Virus record (IMG/VR): IMGVR_UViG_3300025122_000009
Location: 23,795 to 87,794 of that record
Reading direction: 5' to 3' (one strand)
From: a virus
Length of the DNA: 64,000 bases
Both the position numbers and the translations under genes were made by a program. This document shows positions 4,966 through 47,800 of this stretch, piece by piece (position 1 is the first letter of the stretch; every line of letters begins with the position of its first letter). The notes under the pieces were generated by a model, which was not told where the DNA came from, searched no databases, and saw nothing but the letters and a program-made list of their open reading frames with translations.

Positions 4966-4975
4966 ACTATTTATA
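4966..4975 (+). promoter_or_regulatory. Putative late promoter motif ACTATTTATA
   Basis: Recurring intergenic motif, here upstream of scaffold/MCP. Confidence 0.65.
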
Positions 4976-26010: not shown

Positions 26011-26864
26011 TTGGATTGGGCCAAGCCGGTTTTAATATCGCGACGGGTTTCGCGAAATACCCTCAGTATAATGTTTATACGCTGGATTCCGAGGCGCAGC
26101 ACACTCCTAACCACTTTCTTCTTCCCAAGTGTGCGAACCATGAGGAGTACGAGTCGCGTACTCCAGATTTGTCAGGATACTTTAAAGAAATCCCAGAGGG
26201 GGAAGAGGTATTATTTATTATTGGGGGCGGAGGAACTGTAAGTGGTGCTTCTCTTGCGATTTTGCAGCAACTTCAAAAGTGCAAAATTCACCTCCTTTAT
26301 ATTAAGCCCGATATCTCTCTAGTGAGTGAACAAAGGATGAAGCAGGAACGTGTGGTCTTCAATATTCTCCAAGAATATGCGCGATCTAGTGTTTTTGAAC
26401 GCATTATTTTAATTGACAATATGGAACTAGATAGAATAGCGGGAGGGGCTCCGGTAATAGGATATTATAAGGAATTGAATAAAATTTTAATTTCTGCTCT
26501 TCACATGATAAACGTCTTTACCCACTCTGAAGCTGTTATGAACACAATCGCCAAACCGCTTGAAATGACGCGCATTACAACGGTTGGCGTTCTAGATGTG
26601 GAAAAAAACGAAGAGAAGTTGTTTTTTCCCTTGACAGCGACTAGGGAAAAGAGTTATTATTATGCAGTGAACAACGAAACGTTAAAAACGGATCGCGAGC
26701 TATTTAAAACTATTACTGGACAACTGAAAGAAAAAATTATTGAGGATAAACTGAAAATCTCATACGGAATTTATTCAACTCAGTATAAAAAGAATTATGG
26801 TTTTTTAATCGCTCGAAGTTCTATGGTGCAAGGCATTATCTTAGAAAAAACCGAGGAGGAATAA
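25998..26864 (+). CDS. Tubulin/FtsZ-family protein (PhuZ/TubZ-like)
   Basis: N-terminal IGLGQAGFNIA, signature-like GGGGTVSG, ILIDN, YKELN. Confidence 0.7.
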   Translation: MQTVIGLGQAGFNIATGFAKYPQYNVYTLDSEAQHTPNHFLLPKCANHEEYESRTPDLSGYFKEIPEGEEVLFIIGGGGTVSGASLAILQQLQKCKIHLLYIKPDISLVSEQRMKQERVVFNILQEYARSSVFERIILIDNMELDRIAGGAPVIGYYKELNKILISALHMINVFTHSEAVMNTIAKPLEMTRITTVGVLDVEKNEEKLFFPLTATREKSYYYAVNNETLKTDRELFKTITGQLKEKIIEDKLKISYGIYSTQYKKNYGFLIARSSMVQGIILEKTEEE

Positions 26865-31510: not shown

Positions 31511-31526
31511 CTAATAAAATTTACTG

Positions 31527-31555
31527 TTGACTTTCCAACCCTCCTCGGTTATACT
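31527..31555 (+). promoter_or_regulatory. Sigma70-like promoter for exonuclease-helicase-RNR
   Basis: TTGACT-N17-TATACT. Confidence 0.7.
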
Positions 31556-31569
31556 GGGGAGGGTTTTTT
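31537..31569 (+). terminator. Rho-independent terminator overlapping that promoter
   Basis: AACCCTCCTCGGT-tat-ACTGGGGAGGGTT running into a T tract. Confidence 0.75.
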
Positions 31570-31582
31570 ACGTAGAGGAATT

Positions 31583-32542
31583 ATGAAAAGAGTAGTATTG
31601 ATTGATGCCCTAAACATGCTTTACAGGGCGTATATTGTGGACCCAAGCCTTTCTACCAACGGTTATCCAATCGGAGGAATTAAAGGCTTTCTTAAGATTT
31701 TACAGAAAATGGTGAGGGAAATGAAGCCAGACCGCGTTATTATCGCGTGGGATGGCATCGGTGGCTCAAAACGACGGAAATTGGTTCAAAAGGATTATAA
31801 AGCGGGAAGGAAGCCGATCCGGCTGAATCGGGACATTAGGAATATGTCCGAGAATGAAGAAATAGAGAATAAAATTTGGCAACAAACTCGTCTGACACAA
31901 TATTTAAATGAGTTGCCTGTTATCCAAACCATGGTACCTCACATCGAGGCTGATGACATCATCGCGTATGCGGTTCAGATGAATTGTTTTAAGGGTTGGC
32001 AAAAGATTATTATCTCTAGCGATAAGGACTTTATTCAGCTTTGTGATGACGAAACAGTGTTGTATAGGCCGATACAGAAGGTCTTTCTCAACAGCAAAAG
32101 GGTGGTGGAAGAGTACGGCATCCATCCGGCTAATTTCGCCCTCGCACGCGCCATTTCTGGTGATAAGAGTGATAATCTCAAGGGTGTTGGAGGCGTTGGG
32201 ATGAAGACAGTAGCCAAGAGATTCCCTTTTTTAAGCGAAGAAAAGACCCATTATATAAGCAGTCTTATCGACCATTGTGGGGAGATGAAAGAAGAAAAGG
32301 CAAAGGTTTATCAGACTATTCAGGAGAACGTGGACGTTATCGAACAGAATTATAAACTAATGCAGCTGTATTCCCCCAATATCCCAATTAACGGGAAACA
32401 AACTGTGCGGCATGCTATTGAAGATTTTGTGCCTGAATTTAATAAGACAGGCACGGTTAAGATGATGACTGAGGATGGCTTTGGAGCTTTTGACTGGTCA
32501 TCCCTGTTCCAAAACATGAAACGTATCACGACGGAGAAATAA
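31583..32542 (+). CDS. 5'-3' exonuclease/flap endonuclease (T4 RNase H / PolI N-terminal-like)
   Basis: LIDALN, WDG, YKAGR, EADDIIA, SSDKDFIQL, GDKSDNLKGVGGVGMKT. Confidence 0.92.
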   Translation: MKRVVLIDALNMLYRAYIVDPSLSTNGYPIGGIKGFLKILQKMVREMKPDRVIIAWDGIGGSKRRKLVQKDYKAGRKPIRLNRDIRNMSENEEIENKIWQQTRLTQYLNELPVIQTMVPHIEADDIIAYAVQMNCFKGWQKIIISSDKDFIQLCDDETVLYRPIQKVFLNSKRVVEEYGIHPANFALARAISGDKSDNLKGVGGVGMKTVAKRFPFLSEEKTHYISSLIDHCGEMKEEKAKVYQTIQENVDVIEQNYKLMQLYSPNIPINGKQTVRHAIEDFVPEFNKTGTVKMMTEDGFGAFDWSSLFQNMKRITTEK

Positions 32543-33903
32543 TGGAAAAAGTTGATTTTTCTAAATATGGGAAAGCTTTCCAAGAGGACCTGGCACAATT
32601 AATCCTGGAGGATAGATCCTTTTCAGATCAAATGCAAGAGGTTTTGAAGCTCGAATTCTTTGAATTTAGATATCTTCAAGTATTTATTGAAAAGATATTT
32701 GATTATCGCAACAAGTATGGCGTTCATCCCACCAGCAAGATAATGATTACTCTCCTCCGCGCTTCTTTAGATGAGGAGAATGACGCGGTTAAGAAACAGG
32801 TTAGGGATTATTTTGCGCGTATCCATAAAGCAGGATTCGGCGTCGATGGCGATGAATATATTAAGGAGACTTCGCTTGATTTTTGTCGAAAACAAAAGCT
32901 CAAGGAGGCAATGCTTGAATCGGTTAAGCTTTTAAAAAGTTCGTCTTTTGACGAGATTAGCGAAGTTATTAATCAGGCTCTAAAGCTGGGGAGTGATAAT
33001 AAGTTTGGATACGATTATAAAGTAGACTTTGAAAAGCGATTTGAAATTAAAGCTCGCAATGCCGTCAGTACTGGGTGGAAAGAAGTTGATGACTTATGTA
33101 AGGGGGGCTTGGGAGAGGGAGAACTGGGAGTGGTTATTGCTCCTACCGGAGCGGGAAAATCAATGGCTTTGGTACACTTGGGGGCCGAGGCTGTAAAAGA
33201 AGGTAAAACTGTCATACACTATACTTTGGAATTGGGATCTACTATAATTGCATCGAGGTATGATAGTTGTATTACAGGCGTTCACTTGAAAGACCTCTTT
33301 TCTTTTAAAGAACAAATATTTGAAACTGTCCAAGAGTTGGAAGGAAATTTAATTATTAAGGAATACCCAACAAAATCAGCTTCGCCCACCACAATCAAGA
33401 CTCATTTGGAGAAGCTTCGCCACCGGGGCATACCCATTGATATGATTATTGTTGATTATGGAGATTTATTGCGACCAAATGTGATAAGAAAAGAGAAAAG
33501 GCACGAACTGGAAACTATTTACGAAGATTTGAGAGCCCTCGCTCAAGAATTTAAGTGTCCTTGTTATACGGCTAGTCAAACTAACAGGAGCGGCTTGAAC
33601 GCGGAAGTAATTACAATGGAATCTATTTCAGAAGCTTTTAATAAATGCTTTGTAGCAGATTTTATCTTCTCCTTATCGCGCACCATCCAAGATAAAAACA
33701 CCAACAGTGGGCGCCTTTTTATAGCTAAAAATAGAAATGGCCCGGACGGATTAATTTATCCTATATTTATGGACACGAGCAATGTGAAGATAAAGGTGCT
33801 TCCTTCGACTGGAGAAACGATGGATAGCGTTGTATCTAAAACGTCCAAAGAGCAGGGAGAACTTCTCAAAGAAAAATATAAGCAATTTAAAAAAGGTAAA
33901 TAA
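32542..33903 (+). CDS. dnaB: Replicative helicase, DnaB/gp41-like
   Basis: Walker A APTGAGKS, YTLE, IIVDYGDL, TASQTNRSG, KNRNG. Confidence 0.9.
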   Translation: MEKVDFSKYGKAFQEDLAQLILEDRSFSDQMQEVLKLEFFEFRYLQVFIEKIFDYRNKYGVHPTSKIMITLLRASLDEENDAVKKQVRDYFARIHKAGFGVDGDEYIKETSLDFCRKQKLKEAMLESVKLLKSSSFDEISEVINQALKLGSDNKFGYDYKVDFEKRFEIKARNAVSTGWKEVDDLCKGGLGEGELGVVIAPTGAGKSMALVHLGAEAVKEGKTVIHYTLELGSTIIASRYDSCITGVHLKDLFSFKEQIFETVQELEGNLIIKEYPTKSASPTTIKTHLEKLRHRGIPIDMIIVDYGDLLRPNVIRKEKRHELETIYEDLRALAQEFKCPCYTASQTNRSGLNAEVITMESISEAFNKCFVADFIFSLSRTIQDKNTNSGRLFIAKNRNGPDGLIYPIFMDTSNVKIKVLPSTGETMDSVVSKTSKEQGELLKEKYKQFKKGK

Positions 33904-33906
33904 AGG

Positions 33907-36324
33907 ATGTATAACGAAGAGGAAGTTGGGAGTGCCACTCTAGAATATTTTAGGGGGGACGAATTAGCAAAAAATGTTTTTATGACCAAATATTGTCTTA
34001 AAGACAAGAAAGGCGCCTTGTTGGAGAAAACGCCTGATGACATGCACCGCCGGCTGGCTAAAGAATTTGCTCGGATAGAAAAAAAGTTCGGAGGCAAAAG
34101 GGCTCTCTCTGAAAAAGAAGTTTATAGTTTTCTTAAAGACTTTAAATATATTGTACCTCAAGGTTCTCCGATGATGGGCATCGGAAATGATCATGTAAAC
34201 GTTTCTTTGTCTAATTGTGTTGTGGTGGACTCTCCTGCCGATACTATTTCATCGATTATGGATGCGGGAAAAGACTTGGCTAACCTTTTTAAGAGGAGAT
34301 GTGGCGTAGGGTTAGACATCTCCGAATTGCGTCCGGAAAACGCTATTGTTAATAATGCGGCTGGCACCACCACAGGAGCATGGAGCTTTGCTGATTTTTA
34401 CTCATATGTGTGTCGGATGGTGGGACAAAATGGGAGACGCGGCGCACTCATGATTTCTATGGATGTGCGGCATCCCGACATAGAACAATTCGTTGAAATG
34501 AAACACGATTTAGCTAAAGTTACCGGTGCAAATGTCTCTGTAAAGATAAATAATTCTTTTGCAAAAGCTGTCGAAAATAAAGAGTCATTTACTTTACAGT
34601 TTCCTGTGGGATCCTCCAACCCCACTCACACAAAAGAAATTCAAGCGGAGGAGCTTTGGAATAAAATTGTAGAATCAGCAACCAAAACAGCAGAGCCCGG
34701 GCTCTTAATGTGGGATAACATAATTAATAATCTCCCAGCTCATTGTTATAAAGAGGATGGGTTTGAAACGCTCACCACCAACCCCTGTGGGGAAATACCC
34801 CTTTCAGCTTATGATTCATGTCGGTTGATCTCTATTAACTTAAAGCATCTGGTAAAAAGTTCTTTCACCTCTCACGCCTATTTTGACTTTGAAGAATTTG
34901 AGAGAGTAGTTTCAGTAGCGATGCGACTTTCTGATGATTTGATTGAGCTTGAGATAGAAAAACTAGAAAATATTATTGCTGTTTGTGACACGGCTGATGA
35001 GAAAGTGTTATGGGAAAAATTGTTGAAAGCGTGTAGGGAGGGCCGACGCACCGGACTCGGGACTCATGGTTTGGCAGATGCAATTGCTCGTCTTCAAACC
35101 TCATATGATTCTGAACCGGCTTACAAAGTGATACACGGTATTTACGAAACTTTGCGTGATGCTGCGTACTCCGAAAGCGTACAATTGGCGCAAGAACGCG
35201 GAGCTTTTCCGATATTTAAATGGGAGAAAGAAGCGACTAACGAATTTATAGGGAGGCTTCCCGAGCAGCTGCGAGAGGCCATTAAAAAATTTGGTCGAAG
35301 AAATATTTCCATCTTAACTAACGCGCCTACCGGGAGTGTTTCCATCATGTCACAAACTAGCTCGGGCCTGGAGCCAGTTTTTCGCAACTCTTATACACGA
35401 CGAAGAAAATTAAGCCACAACGAACAGCATTTGGTACCCGATTTTGTGGACGATCTGGGAGACAAGTGGATAGAATATGAGGTTTTTCACCACAACGTGC
35501 AAGAATGGCTGGAGGCGAATAGGGGAAAAGAAGTGCCTGATTTTTTTACCACCTCCGATCAGATCGATTGGAAGAGGCGCGTGGAGATTCAAGCCGTTAT
35601 CCAACAAAGTATCGACCATTCTATCAGTTCTACCATTAATCTCCCCAAGGGGACCGACCCTTCGGTCGTGGGAGAATTATATTTGTTGGGATGGAGTTTG
35701 GGTCTTAAAGGTATAACGGTTTATGTAGACGGGTCACGCTCGGGAGTGCTGCTTACCAAAAAAGAAGAGGGTAATTTCCCTCAGAACGGGGCCCCCAAGC
35801 GCCCCAATGAACTACCTTGCGCCATTCATCACACTACCATTCAGGGAGAAAAGTGGGTCGTGCTGGTGGGCCTCCTACAGGGTAAGCCTTATGAGGTAAT
35901 GGGGGGTCTATCTAATTTGGTGGAAATCCCAAAAAAGTACAGTGACGGAGCTTTAATTAAAAATAGTTTTAAAACTAAAGACAGTCGCTATGATTTAAAA
36001 TTTGGCGATAACGGAGACGAAGTGGTAATTCGTGATATTGTAAAAGTATTTGATAATGCAAACAATTCTGCTTTTACGCGAATGATTTCTTTGGCCCTTC
36101 GTCATGGAGCAAAGCCGAGCTTTTTGGTTGAACAGCTTTATAAAGATCGGGATAGTGACATGTTCTCGTTTTCTAAATGTATTGCCCGTATCTTAAAGAA
36201 CTATATTCAGGATGGGGAGAGGGCGAACGGGGACAAGACATGTGTAGAGTGTGGTGAAGAAGGAATGATATACCAAGATGGTTGTGTTACATGCCAAAAA
36301 TGTGGTTTTGCAAAATGTGGTTAA
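33907..36324 (+). CDS. nrdJ: Class II (adenosylcobalamin-dependent) ribonucleotide reductase with C-terminal Zn ribbon
   Basis: LSNCVV, RRGALM, TNPCGEIPL, APTGSVS, SSGLEP, GITVYVDGSR; C-terminal CVEC...CQKC; no adjacent nrdB. Confidence 0.85.
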   Translation: MYNEEEVGSATLEYFRGDELAKNVFMTKYCLKDKKGALLEKTPDDMHRRLAKEFARIEKKFGGKRALSEKEVYSFLKDFKYIVPQGSPMMGIGNDHVNVSLSNCVVVDSPADTISSIMDAGKDLANLFKRRCGVGLDISELRPENAIVNNAAGTTTGAWSFADFYSYVCRMVGQNGRRGALMISMDVRHPDIEQFVEMKHDLAKVTGANVSVKINNSFAKAVENKESFTLQFPVGSSNPTHTKEIQAEELWNKIVESATKTAEPGLLMWDNIINNLPAHCYKEDGFETLTTNPCGEIPLSAYDSCRLISINLKHLVKSSFTSHAYFDFEEFERVVSVAMRLSDDLIELEIEKLENIIAVCDTADEKVLWEKLLKACREGRRTGLGTHGLADAIARLQTSYDSEPAYKVIHGIYETLRDAAYSESVQLAQERGAFPIFKWEKEATNEFIGRLPEQLREAIKKFGRRNISILTNAPTGSVSIMSQTSSGLEPVFRNSYTRRRKLSHNEQHLVPDFVDDLGDKWIEYEVFHHNVQEWLEANRGKEVPDFFTTSDQIDWKRRVEIQAVIQQSIDHSISSTINLPKGTDPSVVGELYLLGWSLGLKGITVYVDGSRSGVLLTKKEEGNFPQNGAPKRPNELPCAIHHTTIQGEKWVVLVGLLQGKPYEVMGGLSNLVEIPKKYSDGALIKNSFKTKDSRYDLKFGDNGDEVVIRDIVKVFDNANNSAFTRMISLALRHGAKPSFLVEQLYKDRDSDMFSFSKCIARILKNYIQDGERANGDKTCVECGEEGMIYQDGCVTCQKCGFAKCG

Positions 36325-36331
36325 ATTTTAC

Positions 36332-36360
36332 TTGACAACTATGTTTAGGTATGATAGCAT
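36332..36360 (+). promoter_or_regulatory. Sigma70-like promoter upstream of the groES-aceB-aceA-thyX-metK block
   Basis: TTGACA-N17-TAGCAT with extended -10 TG. Confidence 0.7.
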
Positions 36361-36384
36361 GTGGGTTGTTAAGGAAAAAGGGTT

Positions 36385-36621
36385 ATGGATTTAACACATT
36401 TAGTCTCGGGGCCAAATCGAAAATCTGTATGTAATGCTAGTGTCACCCACTATTGGGTGACAATAGGAGAAGCACAGGCTAGTGCTGGCAACAATATTAC
36501 AGTTCAACTTGAATGTAAGCATTGTAAAAAGAGAATATATGAATTTTTAACCAGAGAAGAATATTTTTTATGTGAAAATCAACTTAAAAGGAGTCAAAAT
36601 GAAACCAGTTCCCGTAATTGA
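36385..36621 (+). CDS. Small putative Zn-binding protein
   Basis: 78 aa; C...H...CKHC. Confidence 0.6.
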   Translation: MDLTHLVSGPNRKSVCNASVTHYWVTIGEAQASAGNNITVQLECKHCKKRIYEFLTREEYFLCENQLKRSQNETSSRN

Positions 36622-36889
36622 GGTTGTCATGGAGCAAAAACAAACGGACATTCAAAAAAAAGAAGAGCACATTACCAACTATATTAAATCGCTAGCTACT
36701 GTCGAAGAAGAGATGGAACCCTTTAAAGAACATAAGCGAGATTTGAAAAAGAGCTATGTAGAAAATGGGTGGCTCTCCAAAGAGGAAATCAGCATGGCGG
36801 TGAAGGCATATCGCCTCATGAAAGACGATGTTGATGTAGAACAATTGATGGATTTTTATGACCGTGTTTCTAAAACTGTGAGCAAATGA
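36599..36889 (+). CDS. GapR/T4 DsbA-like double-stranded DNA-binding protein
   Basis: ITNYIKSLATVEEEMEPFKEHKRDLKKSYVENG..SKEEISMAVKAYRLMKDD resembles the DUF2312/GapR helix pattern; AGGAG RBS before ATG 36599. Confidence 0.5.
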   Translation: MKPVPVIEVVMEQKQTDIQKKEEHITNYIKSLATVEEEMEPFKEHKRDLKKSYVENGWLSKEEISMAVKAYRLMKDDVDVEQLMDFYDRVSKTVSK

Positions 36890-36896
36890 GGTTGAA

Positions 36897-37214
36897 ATGA
36901 ACTTTTATCCCTGTAGCAGATATCTGCTGGTAAAGACTATCCGCGAAGAGAGTGTTGAAGAAGAGCAGCGTGTATTGTTGCCGGAAGGCTACACTCCCTC
37001 GAAGAAGGAATTCGGGGCTTATATGGTTGTATCAGCAGCCCCCGAAGTAGCACTTAGTGTATTTCCTGGCGAGGTGGTTGTGGTAGAAGAAAGCATGGTG
37101 AGAGAAATTAATTTTCAGGGGGAGACCCACCTTATTGTATTAGAAAATTATGTATGTGGAGTTCTTTCGCCGGATGGGAAGGAAGAGTTCTGGGAAGACT
37201 GTGAAACGGTATAG
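36897..37214 (+). CDS. groES: Divergent GroES-like co-chaperonin
   Basis: P..RYLLVK, VLLPEG loop, V.PGEVVVV, INFQGETHLIVLENYVCGVL. Confidence 0.65.
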   Translation: MNFYPCSRYLLVKTIREESVEEEQRVLLPEGYTPSKKEFGAYMVVSAAPEVALSVFPGEVVVVEESMVREINFQGETHLIVLENYVCGVLSPDGKEEFWEDCETV

Positions 37215-37240
37215 CTGATTATAATTAAAAAAGGAGTAGG

Positions 37241-38773
37241 ATGCTAAAAGTAAGAGATCGTGAAAAATATAAAAACATTTTAACCAATGAGGCATTATCT
37301 TTTGTGGAAGATCTGTCTCATCTGTTTGATGCCCGAATACATTCTGTATTAGAGTCTAGGGAATATACTCAGTTTTATTTTGATGCGGGTGAGAAACCTA
37401 ATTTTTTATCTGAAACCCGAGAGATCCGCGAGAGCGATTGGATGGTGGGGGAAATCCCTGCCGAGATTATGGACAGGCGTGTTGAAATCACCGGTCCAGT
37501 TAACCGCAAAATGGTTATTAACGCCCTCAACTCAGGCGCCCGAGTTTTTATGGCCGATTTCGAAGATTCCAATTCCCCTACGTGGGAGAATTGTGTGGAA
37601 GGGCAGAACAATTTGTATGATGCTATTCGCGGGACTATTGACTATAGGGATCCCAAGACTGGCAAACACTACGCCCTTAATGACAACCCTGCGGTTTTGT
37701 TCGTGCGCCCGAGAGGACTTCATCTGGAAGAAAAAAATATATTGTGGAATGACAAGCCTATGCGTGCCAGTTTGTTTGATTTTGGCATGTATGTTTTCCA
37801 TAATGCGCGCCACTTGGTAGAAAACGGTTCACGTCCTTATTTTTATCTACCGAAATTGGAGCACTATGCGGAAGCTAAAATTTGGGCTGATATTTTCCGT
37901 CATACCGAGAATTATTTTGGTATTCCAGAGGGGACGATTAAAGCCACAGTTCTCATAGAAACCCTCCCTGCTGCTTTTCAAATGGATGAAATTTTGTTTG
38001 CTCTTAAAGATCATTCTGCTGGACTGAATTGTGGACGATGGGACTATATTTTTAGCTTTATAAAGACTTGCAAGAACGACCCTCAGAGCGTGATGCCTGA
38101 TAGAGATCAAGTAACAATGACCCAGCATTTTATGAGAAGCTATACCCAACTTCTTATTTCTACCTGCCACCGCCGTGGTGCACATGCGATGGGAGGTATG
38201 GCGGCTCAAATTCCAATTAAAAATGATCCTGAAGCGAATGCGTCTGCCTTGGCGAAGGTCCGAGAGGATAAAATGCGGGAGGTGTGCGATGGACATGACG
38301 GGACGTGGGTGGCTCACCCGGGCCTGATCCCCATCGCTATGGAAGTTTTTGATACTCACATGAAAGAGTCTAATCAAATTCATAAACATTTGGATAATCT
38401 TAATGGACCAATTGAAGCGCAGGATCTTTTGTGTGTCCCCAAAGGAACATGCACAGAGGCGGCTTTAAGAAAAAATATTAAAATTGGATTTGAGTATTTG
38501 AAGGCGTGGGTGAACGGTAACGGATGCGTGCCCCTTAATAATTTGATGGAGGATGCGGCTACTGCTGAAATTTCCCGCGCTCAAATTTGGCAATGGAGGA
38601 GGCATAATGTTCAACTAGATAATGGACATAAAGTAACCTCTTCTTATTTGCGCCAGGTTTTAAAGGAGGAGTTGTCTGACGAAGAGGGTCAAGCTCGCAA
38701 CTTGTTTGAGTCGCTTTGCCTTTCAGAAAAGTTGAGCGATTTTTTAACCCTAGAGGCGTATAAGGAGCTTTAA
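37241..38773 (+). CDS. aceB: Malate synthase A
   Basis: [17 protein letters not shown], catalytic [51 protein letters not shown], catalytic [18 protein letters not shown]. Confidence 0.97.
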
Positions 38774-38775
38774 AA

Positions 38776-39996
38776 ATGATTAAACGACCATATACTGAAG
38801 AAGATGTATCACTTTTGCGGGGCTCTTTAAGAGAGGAGCATACTTTGGCTAAAAGGGCAGCTAAGACTTTGAGGCGCCTGTTGAAAGAGGAAGACTATGT
38901 TCATGCTATGGGGGCATTAACAGGGGGTCAAGCAATGCAGATGGTTAAAGCGGGCACCAAAGCAATTTATTGTTCGGGATGGCAAGTGGCCGCTGACGCC
39001 AACGATTCTCATGAAATGTACCCTGATCAGAGTTTGTACGCGGTACACAGTGTTCCCATGTTAGTCCAGAAGATTAACAATACGCTTCGCCGTGCCGACC
39101 AAGTTGAGTGGAGTGAAAACGACCGCATCCCCACACGGGATTGGTTTGCCCCTATTGTGGCTGATGCCGAAGCTGGCTTCGGAGGATCTTTGAACGCTTT
39201 TGAATTAATGAAGGCTATGATCCGCGCCGGCGCAGCCGGCGTTCATTTTGAAGATCAGCTGTCTTCCGCGAAGAAGTGTGGCCATCTGGGTGGAAAGGTG
39301 CTGGTGCCAGCTTCCGAGTTTATTAAGAAGCTTGTTGCTGCGCGGCTAGCTGCTGACGTGATGGGCACTCCTACGGTTATCATCGCTCGCACGGATGCTG
39401 ATAGTGCTCGTTTGTTGACGTCTGATATCGATGAAGTTGATAAGCCTTTTATTGAGAGCAGAAATCGAACTTCAGAAGGATTTCATAGGATCACGGGCGG
39501 AATTGATATGGCTATTGCGAGGGGTCTTCAATATGCTCCGTATGCTGACTTGTTGTGGTGCGAAACCAGCACTCCAGACTTGGAAGAGGCTAAAAAATTC
39601 GCTGATGCGATCCACAAAAAATTTCCTGGTAAAATGCTAGCATACAATTGCTCTCCATCCTTTAATTGGCGCAAAAATTTAGACGATAAAACTATCGCCA
39701 AATTTCAGCGTGAGTTAGGAAAAATGGGATATAAATTTCAATTCATTACTTTGGCCGGTTTCCACAATCTCAACCATCACATGTTCCAGCTTGCGCTAGA
39801 TTATAACAAGCGCGATATGTTGGCTTATGCTGATTTGCAGGATGCGGAATTTGCCGCGCAGGAAATGGGCTATACGGCTCACAAGCACCAGAGGGAGGTG
39901 GGAACGGGATATTTTGACGCTGTTTCGCAGGTTATTTCATCCGGGGACCCCTCCACTCTAGCGTTGAAGAACTCTACCGAAGAGGATCAGTTTTAG
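38776..39996 (+). CDS. aceA: Isocitrate lyase
   Basis: [35 protein letters not shown], catalytic [44 protein letters not shown]. Confidence 0.97.
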
Positions 39997-40012
39997 GAGT
40001 CTTTGATGATCT

Positions 40013-40267
40013 TTGAAGCCTTTGACGCGGATTGCCGCCCTCTTGTTTGTATTGGGGAAAATATTTTGTTTTTTTACTATATTTTCTGTCTTTATAAACA
40101 GGGGGGCGGCAGAGGTTTGCCTCTTTATTTATATTGCATGTATAATTGGAGCCATTGTTTTATCTCTTGTAGATATGAGCCGAATTAAAAGAGAAGAACA
40201 AACTCCTCCGGTTGAAGAAGTAAAGAGATGGGCCCGTGAGCATGGCCTAAAATTGGGTGATGAGTGA
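40013..40267 (+). CDS. Small two-TM membrane protein
   Basis: 84 aa; two hydrophobic helices; overlaps the thyX start; exact start uncertain. Confidence 0.55.
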   Translation: MKPLTRIAALLFVLGKIFCFFTIFSVFINRGAAEVCLFIYIACIIGAIVLSLVDMSRIKREEQTPPVEEVKRWAREHGLKLGDE

Positions 40268-40974
40268 AAAAGAAAATAGATTTATATGGAGATGATATCG
40301 GGTTTGTACAACTGGTTGATAGTCTTGGCGATGATCTTTCCGTGGTCAATAGCGCTCGTGTTTCTTTTGGCAAGCATAAGGCGCAACTGGAAGAACAAGA
40401 TAAAAAATTAATTAGTTATCTTATTGCACATCGCCACACCAGCACATTAGAACATTGTGTTATGACGCTTCGATTCAAGGTACCATTATTTATTTCCAAG
40501 CAGCACATGCGTCACCGAACGTGGAGCTACAATGAAATTAGTAGAAGGTACACCAATTTTAATATAGAATTTTATGAACCTCAAGCTTTCCGGGCTCAAC
40601 ACGAATCAAACCGACAAGCGAGCACGAGCGCACTAGTGGACCCCAAAGTGATTTATCATTCTGTTCCTAATGGGGCATCGAGCACGGCGAGCCAGTTGGT
40701 GAAAAATCACAATGGGGCTAGTTTGCGCCTATATGAGGCGCTCTTGGATGCTGGGGTGTGCCGGGAACAAGCGCGAGGGGTTTTACCCCAAAATATTTAT
40801 ACTGAATATTATGGAACAGCTAATTTAAATAATATTCTTAAATTTATTGCGTTGCGCACCCATCCCGGTGCACAGTGGGAAATCCAGCAAGTAGCCAACG
40901 CTGTTTTGGATATTGCTAAAGATTTGTTTCCGGTTACAGTTAAGGCTTTTATAAAGGAGAAAAATGTGGTATAA
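40264..40974 (+). CDS. thyX: Flavin-dependent thymidylate synthase
   Basis: VNSARVS, HTSTLEH, RHRTWSYNEISRRY, EQARGVLP, LRTHPGAQWEI. Confidence 0.95.
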   Translation: MKKKIDLYGDDIGFVQLVDSLGDDLSVVNSARVSFGKHKAQLEEQDKKLISYLIAHRHTSTLEHCVMTLRFKVPLFISKQHMRHRTWSYNEISRRYTNFNIEFYEPQAFRAQHESNRQASTSALVDPKVIYHSVPNGASSTASQLVKNHNGASLRLYEALLDAGVCREQARGVLPQNIYTEYYGTANLNNILKFIALRTHPGAQWEIQQVANAVLDIAKDLFPVTVKAFIKEKNVV

Positions 40975-41143
40975 TATTCGAGCACGGTCCATTTCGCTGG
41001 ACCGAATGATAGAATTTTGGCTGTTTGCGGAAGACAGAGAAAAATTAGATGAAATTTTAAATAAAAAGGAATATGATAATATTGAATGGATTAAAGAAGC
41101 CACCCCCCCGTGGGAGCGAAAAACAAAAAGGAGTATACGATGA
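40964..41143 (+). CDS. Hypothetical 59-aa protein (MWYNIRARSISLDRMIEFWLFAEDREKL...)
   Basis: AAGGAG RBS before ATG 40964; its stop overlaps the metK start (ATGA); not in the ORF track. Confidence 0.6.
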   Translation: MWYNIRARSISLDRMIEFWLFAEDREKLDEILNKKEYDNIEWIKEATPPWERKTKRSIR

Positions 41144-42108
41144 TTAGAACAGCGGAGTGTATAACACCCAAACATCCCGATAAAATTTGCGACAGGATTT
41201 CAGATGCTATTTTAGATGAATGCCTACGACAGGACCCTTCTTCTCGCGTAGCGGTGGAAACTTGTGGAGGGCATGGAAAAATATATATTACAGGGGAGAT
41301 TACCACTAGCGCAACAGTTGACATTCCAGTCATCGCTAAAGAAGTTTACGGGAAGCCTATCGAGGTTGAAACTAATATTGTCCAGCAGAGTAATTTCATC
41401 GCTCAAGGTGTTGACACAGGAGGGGCTGGGGACCAAGGCATTATGGTGGGGTATGCGTGCAATGAAAATGACGCTTTAATTCCGCAAGAGTTGTTTTTGG
41501 CGCGTCAGCTTTGTCGATTACTATATGATAAATACCCTCATGACGGCAAGACACAGGTGACTTTGGAAGATGATCGGATTGTTGCCGTGGTGGCCAGCTT
41601 CCAAAATGCACCAGCGGAAGATCTTCATGCGATGGTAAAGGAGTGGCTCGGCCTTCCGTGGCTGGATGGGCGACGAGAGCCTGAAATTCATTGCAATCCA
41701 GCGGGGGATTGGGAGATGGGCGGCTTTGATGCCGATGCTGGTGTGACAGGTCGCAAGCTCGTGGTGGATAATTATGGCCCTCGCATCCCGATTGGAGGGG
41801 GCGCGTTTAGTGGTAAAGACGCATCCAAAGTGGACCGGAGCGCTGCATATATGGCACGCCGTATAGCAGTAGATATTTTGGGGGATCATCAAGCCGATGA
41901 AGTGTATGTCTATTTGGCGTATGCGATTGGACATGATCAGCCAGTTCAAGCCACAGCAATAGTTGATGGTGTTGAGGTCCAATTGGGCTTGCTAGGCAAA
42001 TATGACTTAACTCCCCGTGGCATTAAATCATATTTAAAATTAACAGAACCAGTCTTTGAACAGAGTGCCACATGGGGGCATTTTGGCAACGGCTTTGAAT
42101 GGAGGTAA
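41140..42108 (+). CDS. metK: S-adenosylmethionine synthetase (short form)
   Basis: HPDKICDRISDAILD, GAGDQGIMVGYA, DGKTQVT, DAGVTGRK, GGGAFSGKDASKVDRSAAYMAR, GHFG. Confidence 0.93.
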   Translation: MIRTAECITPKHPDKICDRISDAILDECLRQDPSSRVAVETCGGHGKIYITGEITTSATVDIPVIAKEVYGKPIEVETNIVQQSNFIAQGVDTGGAGDQGIMVGYACNENDALIPQELFLARQLCRLLYDKYPHDGKTQVTLEDDRIVAVVASFQNAPAEDLHAMVKEWLGLPWLDGRREPEIHCNPAGDWEMGGFDADAGVTGRKLVVDNYGPRIPIGGGAFSGKDASKVDRSAAYMARRIAVDILGDHQADEVYVYLAYAIGHDQPVQATAIVDGVEVQLGLLGKYDLTPRGIKSYLKLTEPVFEQSATWGHFGNGFEWR

Positions 42109-42110
42109 AG

Positions 42111-42683
42111 ATGATTAAAGTATTATTAACAGTTCTAGCACTACTCATGACGACTGCAGCATTCGCACAAGAAGCGCCGCAGCCGCCCAATAACATATAC
42201 GGCTTTATGGGCGCTTTTAAGGGCGCAGTACCGGGCTTTGCCAAGAAGCCTCGTTACTTTAATGCTAAACGAGCGGAAGAAAATTTACGCTTCCTTTACG
42301 ACAAAAAGGGGGTAAGGCTCGTGTTTAGTTTGGATCATTGTAACGATGTGAACAAAGTCATTAGAAAAATGAATGTTAATTTGGACCCTCCTATCGAACA
42401 TATCTGCAGAAAGATATATCGAAGCGGCAAGCATTATGGCAAAAATATCACCTTGTTTGAAGAAATCGCGTCTGCTATTGGAAGTGAGCCTTTTTATATT
42501 CATTGTCGATACGGAGCCCACCGCGCAGTAACTGCCCTAACCGGTGGGTGGATAGCACGACTACGATTAAGTTTTGAGGAAGCCTTTGAGAGGACAGGTG
42601 GCAAAAAACGAGCCTTCAGGAGCAAGGGTCAAAAAGAGCTTTTGAACCAGGCCAAGAAGTACGCTGCTGATAGAATCGAATGA
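42111..42683 (+). CDS. Exported protein-tyrosine/dual-specificity phosphatase-like protein
   Basis: Signal peptide ending AFA; GVRLVFSLD; CX5R P-loop YIHCRYGAHRA. Confidence 0.7.
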   Translation: MIKVLLTVLALLMTTAAFAQEAPQPPNNIYGFMGAFKGAVPGFAKKPRYFNAKRAEENLRFLYDKKGVRLVFSLDHCNDVNKVIRKMNVNLDPPIEHICRKIYRSGKHYGKNITLFEEIASAIGSEPFYIHCRYGAHRAVTALTGGWIARLRLSFEEAFERTGGKKRAFRSKGQKELLNQAKKYAADRIE

Positions 42684-43129
42684 TAGCCCAACTCTTATGC
42701 GCCACAGTCGTGGCCCTCTCTTTCCCTAGAGCAGATGTAGCTTGTAAATATATGCCAACCTTGGTAGAAGCCTCAGAGAAATATAATTTAGAGCCATCGC
42801 TGATGATTGCTATGATACGGGTAGAAAGCAATTGGAAGACGACTGCTGTGAGTCGTTCGCGTGCTTGTGGCTTGACACAGGTATTGGTTAAATATTCTAA
42901 ATATTCGTGCCGTACTTTAACTCGGAATCCTAAGATTTCAATCATGGAAGGAGCTAAGAAGCTTAACTATTGGATTTATAAATATGGGAAAGGCAATATA
43001 AAAGTGGGCCTATGTGGGTACAATGCTGGCTTTAGGTGTAAGGGAAAAAACAAAAACAAGCGTGGTTTTCGCTATGCTAAAAAAGTTTTAAAGTATCAAA
43101 AGTTAGTGGATGAGAAAAATAGTTCTTGA
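42680..43129 (+). CDS. Lytic transglycosylase (SLT domain) with N-terminal hydrophobic segment
   Basis: AMIRVESNW (catalytic E), ACGLTQV, GAKKL, GYNAG. Confidence 0.85.
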   Translation: MIAQLLCATVVALSFPRADVACKYMPTLVEASEKYNLEPSLMIAMIRVESNWKTTAVSRSRACGLTQVLVKYSKYSCRTLTRNPKISIMEGAKKLNYWIYKYGKGNIKVGLCGYNAGFRCKGKNKNKRGFRYAKKVLKYQKLVDEKNSS

Positions 43130-44021
43130 TAAGGTTGTTATTGGAACGCGCCTCGATGCTCTCATTTATGCCTTTTTAAATGACCTTCCTCTATTGTTAG
43201 CTGACATTAAAAAGCCATCTCAAGTAGAATATTTAGAAGAAACATCTCTGCCGGTTATTGGAGATTTCCCCTCTACTCAATTGAAAACCGCTACTGTCGT
43301 TAAAACAGTTGGGCCCAACAAGCTTGAAGTGTGGAACCGCTTGTCTTTTTTGCTGTCGATAAGAGGAAAGATTCCATTTGCAGATAAAATTTCCTTTATC
43401 AGAGTCGATGAGGAAAAAAAAGAATTAAAAATTGTGACTCACAATTCACGCTCAATAATAATTCATTGTAACCGAGTTGTAATTTTTGATGATAAAAATG
43501 TAAATGGTCTTCCGGCTGCTGTTAAGACGTGCGGGGATGATACAAAGCGCACGGTGTTGGATTGGATTGATGTAAGGTCAGGGATGGTACACCCCTACGA
43601 TGTCATCGAAGCCGAACTCCCATTCGTGAACTCGGTTCATTTTTATCCCTCTAACCGGATTGATGGGAATCATGACCGTAAGGATTTGGTAGCCGTCTCG
43701 TATTTGACTAGAGACCAATTAAATAATATAAATTATTCTGACTTGCTTGTTCGCTACAGGGTTTTAGAGATGATGAAGGAAGTGGGTATTCGGGGAAGAC
43801 GGAACGGCAAAGATAGCAACAATCCCGCAAAATATAAACATTATGCTATAAAACTAGAAATGAATAAAAGAGAGGTTGACTTGGAGGAAAAAAATTTGTA
43901 TAATAATACATCTTTTATTAAATTTAAGTACGACACCGCAGAGGAATTATTGAAAAATGCTGCCACTGTTTCTTCTCCCCTTTTTGAATTGTATTCTAGC
44001 TTGAAAGGGGCACCCCCATGA
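43110..44021 (+). CDS. Hypothetical protein, possible degenerate Rossmann/FAD-binding N-terminus
   Basis: KVVIGTRLDALIYA at the N-terminus; coupled to the next gene. Confidence 0.6.
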   Translation: MRKIVLDKVVIGTRLDALIYAFLNDLPLLLADIKKPSQVEYLEETSLPVIGDFPSTQLKTATVVKTVGPNKLEVWNRLSFLLSIRGKIPFADKISFIRVDEEKKELKIVTHNSRSIIIHCNRVVIFDDKNVNGLPAAVKTCGDDTKRTVLDWIDVRSGMVHPYDVIEAELPFVNSVHFYPSNRIDGNHDRKDLVAVSYLTRDQLNNINYSDLLVRYRVLEMMKEVGIRGRRNGKDSNNPAKYKHYAIKLEMNKREVDLEEKNLYNNTSFIKFKYDTAEELLKNAATVSSPLFELYSSLKGAPP

Positions 44022-44890
44022 GCGCTTTTCATTTGGCCGGTATCGTGCCCGTGGCGGGTCAAAAATTAGATTTTAATTTTCCGTGGCATGACGCCCTTCA
44101 GCCTATTGGCAAAGACTATTTAGCAGTAGAAAGAGCAGTTGTGGAATGCGCGTATGCGGGGTGCGAAACAATATGGGTGGTATGTAACGATGATATGCAG
44201 CCTCTGATTCGCTATAGGTTGGGAGAGTATGTTCAAGATCCAATATTTTTAAACAGAAGACATCACTTCGGTGCAACTCAAGTGCATAAACAAATACCGA
44301 TTTACTACGTTCCCATTCACGTTAAAGACTTGGGTAAAAGAGATTGTCTTGCATGGAGTGTCTTGTATGGAGCCCTCACCTCCTATCATATAAGTAAGAA
44401 AATAAGTAAGTGGGTGGTTCCCTCTAAATATTATGCAGCTTTCCCATATGGGATATATGAGCCGGCAAGTGTGCGCGAGCATCGCAAAGAGATTTCAAGC
44501 CATAAAAGGTTTTATGTTACTTATCGGGGAAAAACAGTACGAGATAACGAATATCTAGGTTTTACATTTGACGAAGAAGACTATAAAGAATATGTGCGCG
44601 TTATCAGACGAGAAGGAACTGGCTTAAGAAGGCCCGGACAAACGATAGGAAATTCTATGGAAAACCTGCCCATTCAAGAAAGGTGGAGCGGAAGGCATTT
44701 TCCACTTGACAAAGTTTTTGGGGGTGCTATACTGGATGGTGCCAAGGTGGTGGAAGTCCCGTGGTACCAAAAGGTTGACAGTTGGGAGGGATTGAGGTAT
44801 TATTTGTCCGGTGATAAGCAAGTGGAGCGACCCACTAAAGACCTGTTTTCGTATAAAGAATGGAATCCAATAGGAGAGGATAACGAATGA
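44018..44890 (+). CDS. Nucleotidyltransferase-like protein (sugar-1-phosphate NTP transferase fold)
   Basis: AGIVPVAG...PWHDALQPIG..LAVERAVVECAYAGCETIWVV resembles the N-terminus of RmlA/GalU-type enzymes. Confidence 0.55.
   Translation: MSAFHLAGIVPVAGQKLDFNFPWHDALQPIGKDYLAVERAVVECAYAGCETIWVVCNDDMQPLIRYRLGEYVQDPIFLNRRHHFGATQVHKQIPIYYVPIHVKDLGKRDCLAWSVLYGALTSYHISKKISKWVVPSKYYAAFPYGIYEPASVREHRKEISSHKRFYVTYRGKTVRDNEYLGFTFDEEDYKEYVRVIRREGTGLRRPGQTIGNSMENLPIQERWSGRHFPLDKVFGGAILDGAKVVEVPWYQKVDSWEGLRYYLSGDKQVERPTKDLFSYKEWNPIGEDNE
44706..44733 (+). promoter_or_regulatory. Sigma70-like promoter upstream of dnaE
   Basis: TTGACA-N16-TATACT with extended -10 TG. Confidence 0.55.
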
Positions 44891-47800
44891 AAAAATCTAG
44901 CATACCTTTTGTGGGCCTCCACGCGCATAGCGTTGCGGGCTCTATATTTGATGGTCTCGGGTATCCTCAAGAACATATGGACTATGCTTTCGAAAATGGA
45001 AGCGAAGCACTGGCGCTTACTGACCATGGAAACATGAACGGATTAAGTTATCAGATTATGCACGCTCGCACGATGCGAGAAGACGGGAAAAACTTTAAGC
45101 CTATTTTTGGTGTAGAAGCGTATTTTTTACCCTCGGTAAAAAAGTGGAAACAGGAATACGAGGCTGTCAAAGCGGATAAAAAACGCCAAAAGGAGATTGA
45201 AAAGAGTAGCGGACTTGTTATTGAAAACGAAGGAGCTTCCAAGGCCCGTGCTAAAAATATCCTCAATAGACGACGCCACTTGATTTTACTGGCTCAAAAT
45301 CAGGAGGGTTTGAATAATATTTTTCGTATGATATCCACCTCATATCAAGGGGATAATTTTTATCGATATCCTCGTCTTGACTACGCCGCTCTTAAACAAC
45401 GCAACACGGGGGTTATAGCCGCAAGTGCATGTTTGGGCGGCGTATATGCTGGAGATTATTGGGAAAATAGAGAACGTGGTAAAGATGCTATTGCGGATGC
45501 TATGCGTAACACCACACACAACATGCTGGATATTTTTGGAGATCGCTGGTACGGGGAACTCCAATGGAATAATATTCCAGAACAACACGAATTGAATCAA
45601 TTTATTATTCAGATGCATCACGAGTTTGGTATTGAATTAATTTCAACAGCCGACAGTCATTACCCCAACCCTGATGCATGGAAGGATAGAGAACTTTATA
45701 AACGCCTCGGGTGGCTTGGGAAGTCTCGACCCGACTACCTTTCAGCCGACTTGCCAGCAGATGTAGATGAGATTGGTTATGAACTTTATCCAAAAAACGG
45801 CGATCAAATGTGGGAAGCATACAAGACATATTCCCAAAAAGTGGGGGCGTCTTATAATGATAATATGATTGCCGATTCAATTATGCGAACTCATGATATC
45901 GCTATGAATAGGATAGGCAGCTTTATGCCTGACAACAAGGTGCGGCTGCCGGATTTTGTAGTTCCCACGGGGATGACAGCAGACGCTGCGCTGGCCAAAT
46001 TAGGTATGGGAGGTCTGCAGGAGCGAGGGCTTTTGGATAATGAATATCTTGAACGTCTTCGATACGAAACCGATGTTATTAGTGAACGAGGATTCGCCAA
46101 GTATTTTCTCACTATGAAAAGTGTAGCCGACACTGCGACTGACAGTCAATTGGTGGGTTCGGGACGCGGAAGCGCCGCCGGGTCGTTGTTGGCATACGCG
46201 CTGGGAATTACGCAAGTAGACCCCATTAGGTATAATCTTCAGTTTGAGAGATTTATGCGCAAGGAGCAGAAAGATTATCCCGATATTGATTATGATGTTT
46301 CCGATCCGATGGAGTTAAAAGAAGAGTTGATGGAGGAGTGGGGCCAGACTACAGTAGTGCCCATCTCTAATTTTAATACTCTTCAATTGCGCTCGCTTAT
46401 TAAGGACGTTTCTAAATTTTATGGAGTGCCGTTCACCGAAGTGAATCCAGTTACCTCCAAGATGATTAGAGAAGCAACTCCAATCGCGAAGAAAAAACAT
46501 GGCATCAAAGCGGGGGTGTACGCTCCCACCTTTGAAGAATTAATGGAATATTCAGAATCCTTGAAGACCTTTCTAGCCAAATATCCTCATATCGCGGACC
46601 ATATTAACGTCCTTTTCGGGCAGTCGCGATCCGTTAGTAGGCACGCGGGGGGTGTTGTTGTTGGGGAGGATTTAGATAAGCACATGCCCCTTATCAATAG
46701 CGGTGGAGTGGTTCAAACGCCGTGGAGCGAGGGTCAAAATGTCAGGCACTTAGAGCCTATGGGTTTCATTAAATTTGATATCCTGGGGCTGGCGTCACTC
46801 CGTATGATGGAGGGCGCAATCCGGCACATCTTAAAGCGTCATCACGGGGTTGACGAGCCGCGCTTTGAGGACGTAAAACAATTTTACGATGAAAATTTGC
46901 ATCCTGATAAGATTAATTTTGACGATCAGAAGGTTTATAAGAATATCTTTCACAAGGGAAAGTGGGCCGGCATATTCCAGTTCACGGAGAAGGGAGCGCA
47001 AGACTTTTGCAAGAAAGCAAAGCCGCGCAGCATCATCGATATCGCAGCCATTACAAGTATTTACCGACCAGGACCACTGAGTGCTGGGGTGGATAAGATG
47101 TATGTCAAGGCAAAGAGTACCCCTGCAGATATCGAATACCCTCATCGCCTTTTTAGGGAAGCAACGGAAGAGACGTATGGGTTCTTGATCTTCCAGGAGC
47201 AAATCGCCATGCTTGCCCACAAGCTTGGAAAGGACATCACTCTAGACGAGGGGAATGCTCTAAGAAAGCTGTTGGTTAAAAAAGGGACAGGCAAAAAGGA
47301 TGACAAGAAAGAGGACATTAAAAGGCGCTTTGTTGAAGGGTGTAAGCTTAATGGGCTTACGCGAGGAGACGCCGAAGAAATGTGGGCGAAGTTTGAATAC
47401 TTCTCAGGCTATGGCTTCAATAAGTCGCATGCAGTTAGTTATAGCATACTTAGTTATCAGTGCGGTTGGCTTTACAACTATTATCCTGCTGAGTGGATGG
47501 CTGCTTTCTTAGACAAAGAGCCCGAGGGAAGAAAAGAAAAGGCTATTGGTATTGCCAAGCAGTTTGGATTTAAAATCAAGCCACTTAACATCAACCAATC
47601 TGGGAAGGTGTGGGAGATATCAGAGGACGGCAAGACTTTGATCCAGCCTCTCACATCGATCAAGGGACTTGGGGACGCAGCCATGCAACAGATCATGGAG
47701 CATCGACCTTTCAACAATATAGAGGAGTTCTTGTTTCACGAAGAGATTGTATATGGCAAACTCAACAAGCGCGCCCTTGATGTGTTGGTTCGAAGTGAGG

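Follow-up and report, generated by a model that had tools for sequence, protein, structure and literature searches.

Genes for the two enzymes of the glyoxylate bypass, AceA (isocitrate lyase) and AceB (malate synthase), have been described in viruses on several occasions. The aceAB genes were reported from Pacific viromes (Hurwitz et al. 2013, PMC4053976), and an aceBA operon in the complete 179-kb marine viral genome TARA_ERS478052_N000008 was called the first such case (Nishimura et al. 2017, mSphere, PMC5332604). A 2025 preprint on huge phages counts 98 genes for isocitrate lyase and 22 for malate synthase in 98 phages, adjacent to each other in 20 genomes (bioRxiv 10.1101/2025.02.27.640493), and viral isocitrate lyase also figures in papers on Antarctic sub-ice-shelf viruses and permafrost viruses. 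The subject here is another such pair, aceB followed by aceA, at positions 37241-39996 of a 64,000-nucleotide stretch (the window) that comprises bases 23795-87794 of the linear, 87,794-base IMG/VR record IMGVR_UViG_3300025122_000009. The pair is a genuine, intact phage-encoded glyoxylate bypass and a well-supported example of a cargo type that has been in print since 2013-2017. A first-pass annotation of the window had rated it very unusual cargo for a tailed phage, a rating that cannot be kept in view of these reports from 2013, 2017 and 2025 and of the 35 IMG/VR contigs that hold both genes. What seems to be new is a small addition: aceA and aceB would each exist as two virus-only types, shuffled among divergent phage lineages.

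Comparison with the described systems places the locus closest to the marine genome of 2017. As published, TARA_ERS478052_N000008 is likewise an uncultured marine virus, with T4-like structural genes, adjacent aceB and aceA, and a similar genome size (PMC5332604). It differs in that its authors stress lipopolysaccharide/capsule and zeta-toxin genes and a lysogenic role; among the scanned proteins of the window contig there is no lipopolysaccharide/capsule gene, zeta-toxin or integrase, the two genomes being compared by description only. The huge phages (bioRxiv 10.1101/2025.02.27.640493) share with the window phage-borne isocitrate lyase and malate synthase, and the much greater rarity of the latter (22 versus 98) is the imbalance seen in the IMG/VR census below, where both genes occur in 35 of 92 contigs. 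Those huge phages that carry malate synthase come from marine, soil and plant-related habitats, and the collection starts at 200 kb, against ∼180 kb for the window phage.

The bacterial operon of the Escherichia coli aceBAK/IclR type resembles the window in having aceB ahead of aceA and canonical enzymes. In contrast with it, the window lacks aceK and iclR, has replication and nucleotide genes on its flanks, and encodes an AceA that is ∼24 residues shorter at the N-terminus. The absence of aceK and iclR, already asserted on first inspection, extends to the relatives: AceK (PF06315) and IclR (PF01614) domains were found in none of five records (the contig and four relatives), with an E. coli control positive for both. 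Among 50,697 deposited phage records, the only convincing phage-borne isocitrate lyase belongs to phage C48C1 (OQ984149.1, 156 kb, Kyanoviridae), the other matches being bacterial or fragmentary. The C48C1 genome is complete and its homologue, 57% identical over the full length, also lies in a replication region; unlike the window, it has isocitrate lyase only, with no malate synthase by tblastn, the gene is annotated as hypothetical, and its product falls in a separate basal clade.

Both window genes are full-length, apart from a short N-terminus in AceA, and lie on the plus strand, between nrdJ and thyX. The aceB gene (37241..38773, ATG start) encodes a malate synthase A of 510 amino acids, its TAA stop (38771-38773) is followed by two bases, and the ATG of aceA (38776..39996) then opens an isocitrate lyase of 406 amino acids. 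Each has an AAGGAG ribosome site ahead of it, at 37231-37236 for aceB and at 38761-38766, within the 3′ end of aceB, for aceA. AceB scores 756.6 bits on TIGR01344 (malate_syn_A; cut-off 594.5), with residues 13-510 aligned to profile positions 1-510 of 511, and passes the cut-offs of three Pfam domains (MS_N 37.8, MS_TIM-barrel 363.5 and MS_C 121.5 bits), while the malate synthase G models reach just 29.6-36.7 bits, far under theirs. Near full-length matches to solved chains give 635.6 bits for 3cux and 560.7 bits for 3cuz. AceA scores 727.8 bits on the isocitrate lyase model NF011645 (cut-off 562) and 559.1 bits on TIGR01346 (cut-off 275.9), as against 106.5 bits on the methylisocitrate lyase (prpB) model, whose cut-off is 354.4; its matches to solved chains reach 614.6 bits for 6lrp (residues 2-406) and 551 bits for 1igw. 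The description of the pair as full-length malate synthase A and isocitrate lyase, 2 bp apart, is thus borne out by reading frames, equivalog cut-offs and motifs alike, the short N-terminus of AceA aside.

Nearly all the residues expected of working enzymes are in place. AceB has its signature stretches at residues 155 (VRPRG), 238 (LIETL), 265 (GRWDY) and 437, and its active site is presumably made up of the arginine of VRPRG, acidic magnesium ligands in LIETL and GRWDY, and a catalytic aspartate in the stretch at residue 437. AceA has its KKCGH signature at residue 166, which we take to carry the catalytic cysteine. The window AceA was aligned with 79 cellular homologues, in which 168 columns are invariant when a single exception is allowed in each, and it keeps 166 of them; the two missed are a conservative leucine-to-methionine change at residue 45 and an arginine that precedes the shortened N-terminus. 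Among 18 cellular homologues of AceB, 134 columns do not vary, of which the window protein keeps 128; its six differences (residues 33, 36, 214, 408, 415 and 424) are mostly conservative changes outside the four signature stretches. Catalytically dead proteins, named at the outset as an outcome that would overturn the claim, are not indicated by this pattern of conservation, and both enzymes are very probably real and catalytically competent phage cargo.

Substitution rates point the same way. Between the window genes and all 15 relatives compared, synonymous divergence (dS) is saturated, and AceA is still 79-87% and AceB 58-63% identical. In six of ten phage-phage comparisons (three of five contig pairs, both genes) the ratio of nonsynonymous to synonymous divergence (dN/dS) is 0.036-0.113, the other four being saturated. 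Because dN/dS is this low wherever dS is unsaturated, aceA and aceB are, to judge by these rates, under strong purifying selection within phages.

The linkage of the pair to phage DNA is supported by composition and by independent assemblies. The guanine-plus-cytosine (GC) content is 0.434 for aceB and 0.473 for aceA against a gene mean of 0.432 ± 0.038, the z-scores for GC at third codon positions are 0.24 and 1.37, and by codon-usage distance the two genes rank 18 and 21 among 32 long genes. Part of the stretch is contained in 17 public runs, four of which contain at least half of its sampled words, one of them possibly the source; no RNA run is among those listed, which bears on expression in neither direction. 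The better-matching runs are all marine metagenomes, several of which share one year, perhaps as parts of a single campaign. For positions 33000-43000, Logan contigs were aligned from four runs other than the source. One X2 contig (35864-38368) passes from the end of nrdJ through the small open reading frames (ORFs) into aceB, an X3 contig (37548-39124) spans the joint between aceB and aceA, a second X2 contig (39090-40356) leads from aceA to thyX, and a further X3 contig (39136-41612) from aceA through thyX to metK. The junctions at ∼37.2 and ∼40.0 kb, where a coverage break had been suggested as the sign of a faulty assembly, are thus both bridged by contigs from other runs. Mis-assembly is unlikely because the composition is phage-like, the junctions are bridged and the pair recurs in related contigs; chimerism is very unlikely.

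The DNA on either side of the pair is that of a tailed phage. A T4 gp23-like major head protein (phrog_138, E 1.9e-69) and a tail sheath (phrog_23, E 2.5e-72) are encoded in the window, as are, by PHROG scan, a head-tail adaptor and a UvsX-like recombinase; PHROG and Pfam scans add a gp32-like single-stranded-DNA-binding protein, and Pfam and NCBIfam a 5′-3′ exonuclease, DnaB, NrdJ, ThyX and a MetK-like protein. Farther along come an SLT lysozyme-like protein, DnaE, a DNA methylase, dUTPase, an inosine monophosphate dehydrogenase (IMPDH)-family protein and GroEL (Pfam/NCBIfam), followed by ClpP and an amidase (PHROG/Pfam). Among the products of the 23.8 kb upstream of the window are the large terminase and the portal, together with a primase and an SbcCD-like nuclease. 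Phage hallmark genes stand on both sides of aceB-aceA. Every called gene lies on the plus strand, and no transfer RNA genes occur in the window. The pair is accordingly co-directional phage cargo within a replication and nucleotide module, as the first-pass annotation had it, with terminase, portal, head and sheath genes on the same contig.

The head protein matches 2,589 phage records, all at less than 60% identity, and the matches listed include an uncultured huge phage, Flavobacterium phage immuto, Microcystis phage Mel-JY01, Rhodothermus phage RM378 and T4-like cyanophages. Because these matches are so distant and include T4-like cyanophages, the phage is, on gene content and similarity, placed as an uncultured marine myovirus distantly related to T4 and without a close cultured relative. 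Megablast of positions 30000-48000 against the 50,697 phage records gave no match, and the tblastn matches of DnaE are all below 30% identity, leaving no cultured relative to name. The full genome is estimated at ∼180 kb (87.8 kb at ∼48% completeness). A T4-like architecture, with a gp23-like head protein, sheath, gp32 and UvsX, is typical of virulent phages. The major head protein itself (6066-8012) is 648 amino acids long and is matched by its relatives in two pieces covering just 55-76%, a pattern suggestive of a gp23-like fold that bears a large insertion domain.

The first-pass annotation proposed a search for the same neighbourhood in related phage genomes, and it does recur there. In an IMG/VR scan, AceA relatives turned up at 79 loci and AceB relatives at 33, together 92 distinct contigs by name. 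Of these contigs, 35 show both genes in the fetched flanks, in two more the contig ends at aceB, and in 57 there is no malate synthase in the fetched flank. An order of gp32, UvsX, exonuclease, DnaB and NrdJ followed by aceB and aceA is common to 19 contigs, the pair thus keeping its position after nrdJ. Between these 19 syntenic contigs and the window, the backbone proteins are 26-50% identical, AceB 54-63% and AceA 66-80%; among phages generally AceB diverges much faster than AceA (54-63% versus 66-87% identity). The nearest backbone relative of the window, at 64% identity over four replication proteins, is a different record, IMGVR_UViG_3300030329_005813 (locus L018, genome G001), which is 172 kb long and 95% complete by CheckV. 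Its isocitrate lyase, of the other viral type, sits between UvsX and the exonuclease. A CitE/HpcH-type lyase was considered as a substitute for malate synthase in L018 and ruled out, as the record contains none; two sub-threshold matches fall within AceB of G000 and G002.

Trees against cellular and viral homologues, as proposed in the first-pass annotation, set the window genes among viral sequences. A GTDB scan found more than 597 cellular AceA relatives, of which the trees use the best 80; these are 67-71% identical to the window AceA and come from Bacillota, Burkholderiales, Gemmatimonadota, Myxococcota and others. The best viral contig reaches 87% identity, against at most 71% for cellular genomes in that scan. 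In the AceA tree (149 rows from 189 sequences, after fragments below 350 amino acids, frames above 520 and identical duplicates were dropped), the window protein lies in an all-viral clade of nine rows, with a value of 100 in the Shimodaira-Hasegawa-like approximate likelihood-ratio test (SH-aLRT) and bootstrap/aLRT values of 100/99 in the careful tree. Most of the syntenic contigs have an AceA of a second viral clade, of 14 rows (SH-aLRT 99). Neither clade is nested within a cellular one, and the nearest cellular rows stand on unstarred branches. A basal viral clade of 11 rows includes C48C1. The AceB trees likewise show two viral types set apart from the cellular rows, with the window copy in a viral set of 10 rows (100/99).

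Metagenome-assembled genomes of Gemmatimonadales, Myxococcota and Pseudobdellovibrio, which are nearest among cellular AceA sequences, were considered as host or donor and rejected, the branches concerned being unstarred. The link to myxobacterial sporulation drawn in the first-pass annotation has no basis here. Elsewhere in the AceA tree, an isocitrate-lyase-only viral clade of 18 rows (L023, L029-L052, L062, L079 and others, some on contigs of 200-315 kb) nests among Burkholderiaceae; it looks to have been acquired separately and more recently by large phages with Burkholderiales-type hosts, or else may be host DNA. The IMG/VR loci L054, L091 and L107, each with both genes, fall among cellular AceB rows, L091 grouping with cellular AceA too, and may likewise be host DNA or recent acquisitions.

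Within the viral types, the genes do not follow the genomes that carry them. A tree of the concatenated backbone proteins UvsX, exonuclease, DnaB and NrdJ separates the window and L018 (support 100) from the 19 syntenic contigs, here called the S backbone, with ∼5 changes per column between the two groups. In the AceA tree, L018 nevertheless pairs with a contig that has the other backbone (96/97), and the AceA of the S-backbone contigs L005, L007 and L008 groups with that of the window; an approximately unbiased (AU) test rejects the window and L018 as an AceA clade (p = 8.5e-6). For AceB, the S-backbone contigs L008 and L087 group with the window type (100/99), and the AU test rejects S-backbone monophyly with rows of unknown backbone left out (p = 0.0008). 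The groups tested were named from the backbone tree after an earlier gene tree had been seen, so that both p-values are optimistic. The types are also combined differently: L087 has a window-type AceB with the other AceA type, and L005 and L007 have the other AceB type with a window-type AceA. Even so, all three analyses agree in showing a pattern of exchange within a viral gene pool. There is an even chance that marine T4-like phages maintain a long-lived, virus-only pool of two aceA and two aceB types, shuffled as a cassette on at least two very divergent backbones, placed repeatedly by nrdJ, and with malate synthase lost in some lineages.

As to what the pair does in the infected cell, a metabolic route can be proposed. 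The aceBA genes would be transcribed together with the replication and nucleotide genes around them, nrdJ upstream and thyX downstream on the same strand. Isocitrate lyase, free of AceK and IclR control, would then cleave isocitrate of the host to give succinate and glyoxylate, the latter being condensed with acetyl-coenzyme A to malate by malate synthase. The infected cell would thereby bypass the two tricarboxylic acid cycle steps that release CO2 and retain C4 acids, which could feed oxaloacetate and aspartate (for building pyrimidines and purines), phosphoenolpyruvate and gluconeogenesis (for ribose), and respiration. The setting would be phage DNA synthesis in carbon-poor seawater. It is rather likely, on this reasoning, that in lytic replication the pair serves to keep carbon in the form of C4 acids. 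The narrower proposal of the first-pass annotation, that the sink is specifically sugar phosphates for deoxynucleotides, is plausible from the neighbourhood and yet doubtful. Among those window proteins that were scanned against Pfam, PHROG and NCBIfam, on a contig of about half a genome, there is no gluconeogenic, fatty-acid or pentose-phosphate gene.

A number of observations weigh against carbon conservation by a complete, phage-expressed bypass, or against parts of the case for it. A literature search found no biochemical or genetic test of phage AceA or AceB. The record is ∼48% complete by the CheckV estimate, or about half a genome. No malate synthase occurs anywhere in the 172 kb of L018, and because this nearest relative has isocitrate lyase without malate synthase, the full aceBA pair is dispensable in the lineage of the window. 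The AceA N-terminus is short: cellular homologues carry a median of 24 more residues, an otherwise invariant arginine is lost with them, and the match begins at position 26 of 430 in the isocitrate lyase profile and, for the solved chains, at residues 22-40. The N-terminus is short in related phage copies too, with medians of 6-10 extra residues on over-generous start calls. One X2 contig fits the window from 37264 onwards and has 255 unlike letters before that point; this mismatch shows that a variant or relative whose DNA differs upstream of aceB is present alongside. Cellular sampling wider than the best 80 of more than 597 relatives could break the virus-only clusters. Finally, the signals that would delimit an aceBA transcription unit are of classes common by chance. 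The sigma-70-like promoter match that the first-pass annotation placed at 36332 is present on the plus strand (36332..36360, consensus TTGACA-17-TAGCAT with TG before the second hexamer, in a 60-base gap after nrdJ) and may start the unit, but such sites as a class are barely more frequent than in shuffled sequence (24 versus 16.5 ± 4.6). A terminator-like hairpin on the same strand (40100..40126, by consensus match; 10 pairs and a T-rich tail, ∼100 bases past the aceA stop) may mark the end of the unit, its class being modestly enriched (14 versus 6.9 ± 2.8).

Two other roles compete with carbon conservation during lytic growth. In one, the enzymes manage redox balance and energy rather than carbon supply: with isocitrate and 2-oxoglutarate dehydrogenases bypassed, less NADH (reduced nicotinamide adenine dinucleotide) and reactive oxygen would be formed, and succinate would feed respiration directly. 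Hurwitz et al. made the case that viral aceAB has an energy role (PMC4053976), the contig carries a weak c-type cytochrome-like gene, and many phages have isocitrate lyase alone (57 of 92 flanks lack malate synthase, as does L018), which fits a role for succinate or glyoxylate themselves. Set against this, both enzymes are adjacent and under selection here, so that a complete bypass rather than mere isocitrate cleavage seems to be maintained; a redox role is unlikely, although the sequence does not separate it from carbon conservation. In the other, the pair serves lysogeny or pseudolysogeny by helping the carrier cell to grow or survive on C2 compounds. Nishimura et al. proposed such a lysogenic-phase role for their aceBA genome, the closest case known (PMC5332604), and the related record G004 is classed as a provirus by IMG/VR. 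The position of the genes between nrdJ and thyX, in a replication module and on the same strand as all others, argues against this. So does the T4-like architecture noted above. None of six records, among them one at 95% completeness, has a tyrosine integrase, and the contig has no resolvase, absences that count for little as the contig is ∼48% complete. A lysogenic role is altogether improbable, and use of the pair in lytic replication remains the favoured interpretation.

The identity of the genes themselves might also be questioned. A phage contig may take up host DNA through mis-assembly, or a piece of cellular DNA may be mislabelled as viral: IMG/VR has such cases, L054, L091 and L107 lie in the cellular part of the AceB trees, and several matches in the phage collection are plainly bacterial records. 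For the window this explanation is exceedingly improbable, given composition and codon usage typical of the phage, contigs of other runs across both junctions and the aceB/aceA joint, divergent phage contigs bearing the same pair, clustering with viral rows, and phage hallmark genes on both sides. It could equally be supposed that the proteins are diverged paralogues with another activity, such as methylisocitrate lyase or a different coenzyme A-ester lyase. The shortened AceA N-terminus and the much faster evolution of AceB than of AceA among phages would suit this, and a bacterial AceA with secondary 2-methylisocitrate lyase activity has been described (PMC11982470). The canonical equivalog cut-offs are nevertheless passed, the methylisocitrate lyase and malate synthase G models lie far below theirs, and nearly all cell-invariant columns are kept, which makes a change of activity very improbable and a true malate synthase and isocitrate lyase the preferred identification.

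The neighbouring genes were named in the first-pass annotation with mixed success. The flanking genes nrdJ and thyX both exceed their NCBIfam cut-offs. Upstream, nrdJ (33907..36324, plus strand) encodes an adenosylcobalamin-dependent ribonucleotide reductase (TIGR02504, 492.7 versus 399.95 bits; Pfam Ribonuc_red_lgC). Two overlapping small ORFs follow on the plus strand, at 36385-36621 (78 amino acids) and 36572-36889 (105 amino acids), to which no function is assigned; the name GapR-like given to this position finds no support, as the two have no PHROG families and only sub-threshold, unrelated Pfam matches. The longer one has relatives at 49-56% identity in L006 and L009. The next ORF (36897..37214, plus strand, 105 amino acids) had been named GroES; it has a weak Cpn10 match (E 0.0041, 17.5 versus 21.1 bits, profile positions 2-92 of 93) and no NCBIfam or PHROG match, so that a GroES-like co-chaperonin is possible and the firm name is not confirmed. 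GroEL is encoded at 57222-58793 (plus strand, Pfam/NCBIfam). Downstream, thyX (40264..40974, plus strand) encodes a flavin adenine dinucleotide-dependent thymidylate synthase (TIGR02170, 177.8 versus 87.9 bits; Pfam Thy1). Pfam recognises the MetK protein, and its NCBIfam score is below the cut-off (257.8 < 309.4). The dUTPase was found by family scan as claimed. GuaB is an unsafe label for the protein at 50948-51994, a 348-residue member of the IMPDH/GMP-reductase family (GMP, guanosine monophosphate) without a CBS insert, which reaches neither equivalog cut-off (IMP dehydrogenase 295.8 versus 481.5; GMP reductase 219.9 versus 397) and could be a GMP reductase.

The interval between aceA and thyX contains two overlapping, doubtful ORFs at 40003-40188 (61 amino acids) and 40013-40267 (84 amino acids), one of which has a sub-threshold holin-like Pfam match (E 0.0096). 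The terminator-like hairpin and a TATTTATA motif fall inside these frames, so that this 270-base stretch may be either coding or regulatory. A T4 late promoter, TATAAATA, was looked for ahead of aceB, and none was found. The motif and its complement have 14 matches in the window against 4.0 ± 2.0 expected, 11 of the 14 being on the minus strand, that is, TATTTATA on the coding strand. At 4968, 14010, 58809 and 61178 (plus strand), (C/T)ACTATTTATA is intergenic and lies 14-36 bases ahead of gene starts; the (C/T)ACTATTTATA/TATAAATA motif may be a phage promoter class.

Three further ORFs have matches below threshold. The c-type cytochrome-like ORF mentioned above (55486-55839) is small and overlaps the 3′ end of the amidase gene, its best NCBIfam match being cytochrome c6 (34.3 versus 135 bits). 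A 91-residue protein at 62683-62958 matches the adventurous gliding motility protein CglF over its full length (40.3 versus 90 bits) and has a 52%-identical relative in IMG/VR locus L010. A 288-residue ORF at 25998-26864, with a very weak Tubulin/FtsZ match (E 0.0064, 17.2 versus 33 bits), adjoins a short ORF at 24802-26010 with a DNA-polymerase-like PHROG match.

Virus-encoded shunt enzymes imply that some marine phages rewire, in infected cells, the branch point at which carbon is either burnt or conserved. Such rewiring would bear on how much carbon infected cells respire and how much they turn into virus particles and lysate, an idea already in the literature. To it the window adds a clean example, a census (both genes in 35 of 92 contigs, 19 of them syntenic after nrdJ), purifying selection and exchange between lineages, and the aceBA pair is a good candidate for experimental tests of phage AceA and AceB. 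If the virus-only gene pool is real, selection would work not just on the complete bypass but on either enzyme by itself, and phages would have kept a central-carbon pathway in versions of their own and passed these among themselves, independently of their present-day hosts.

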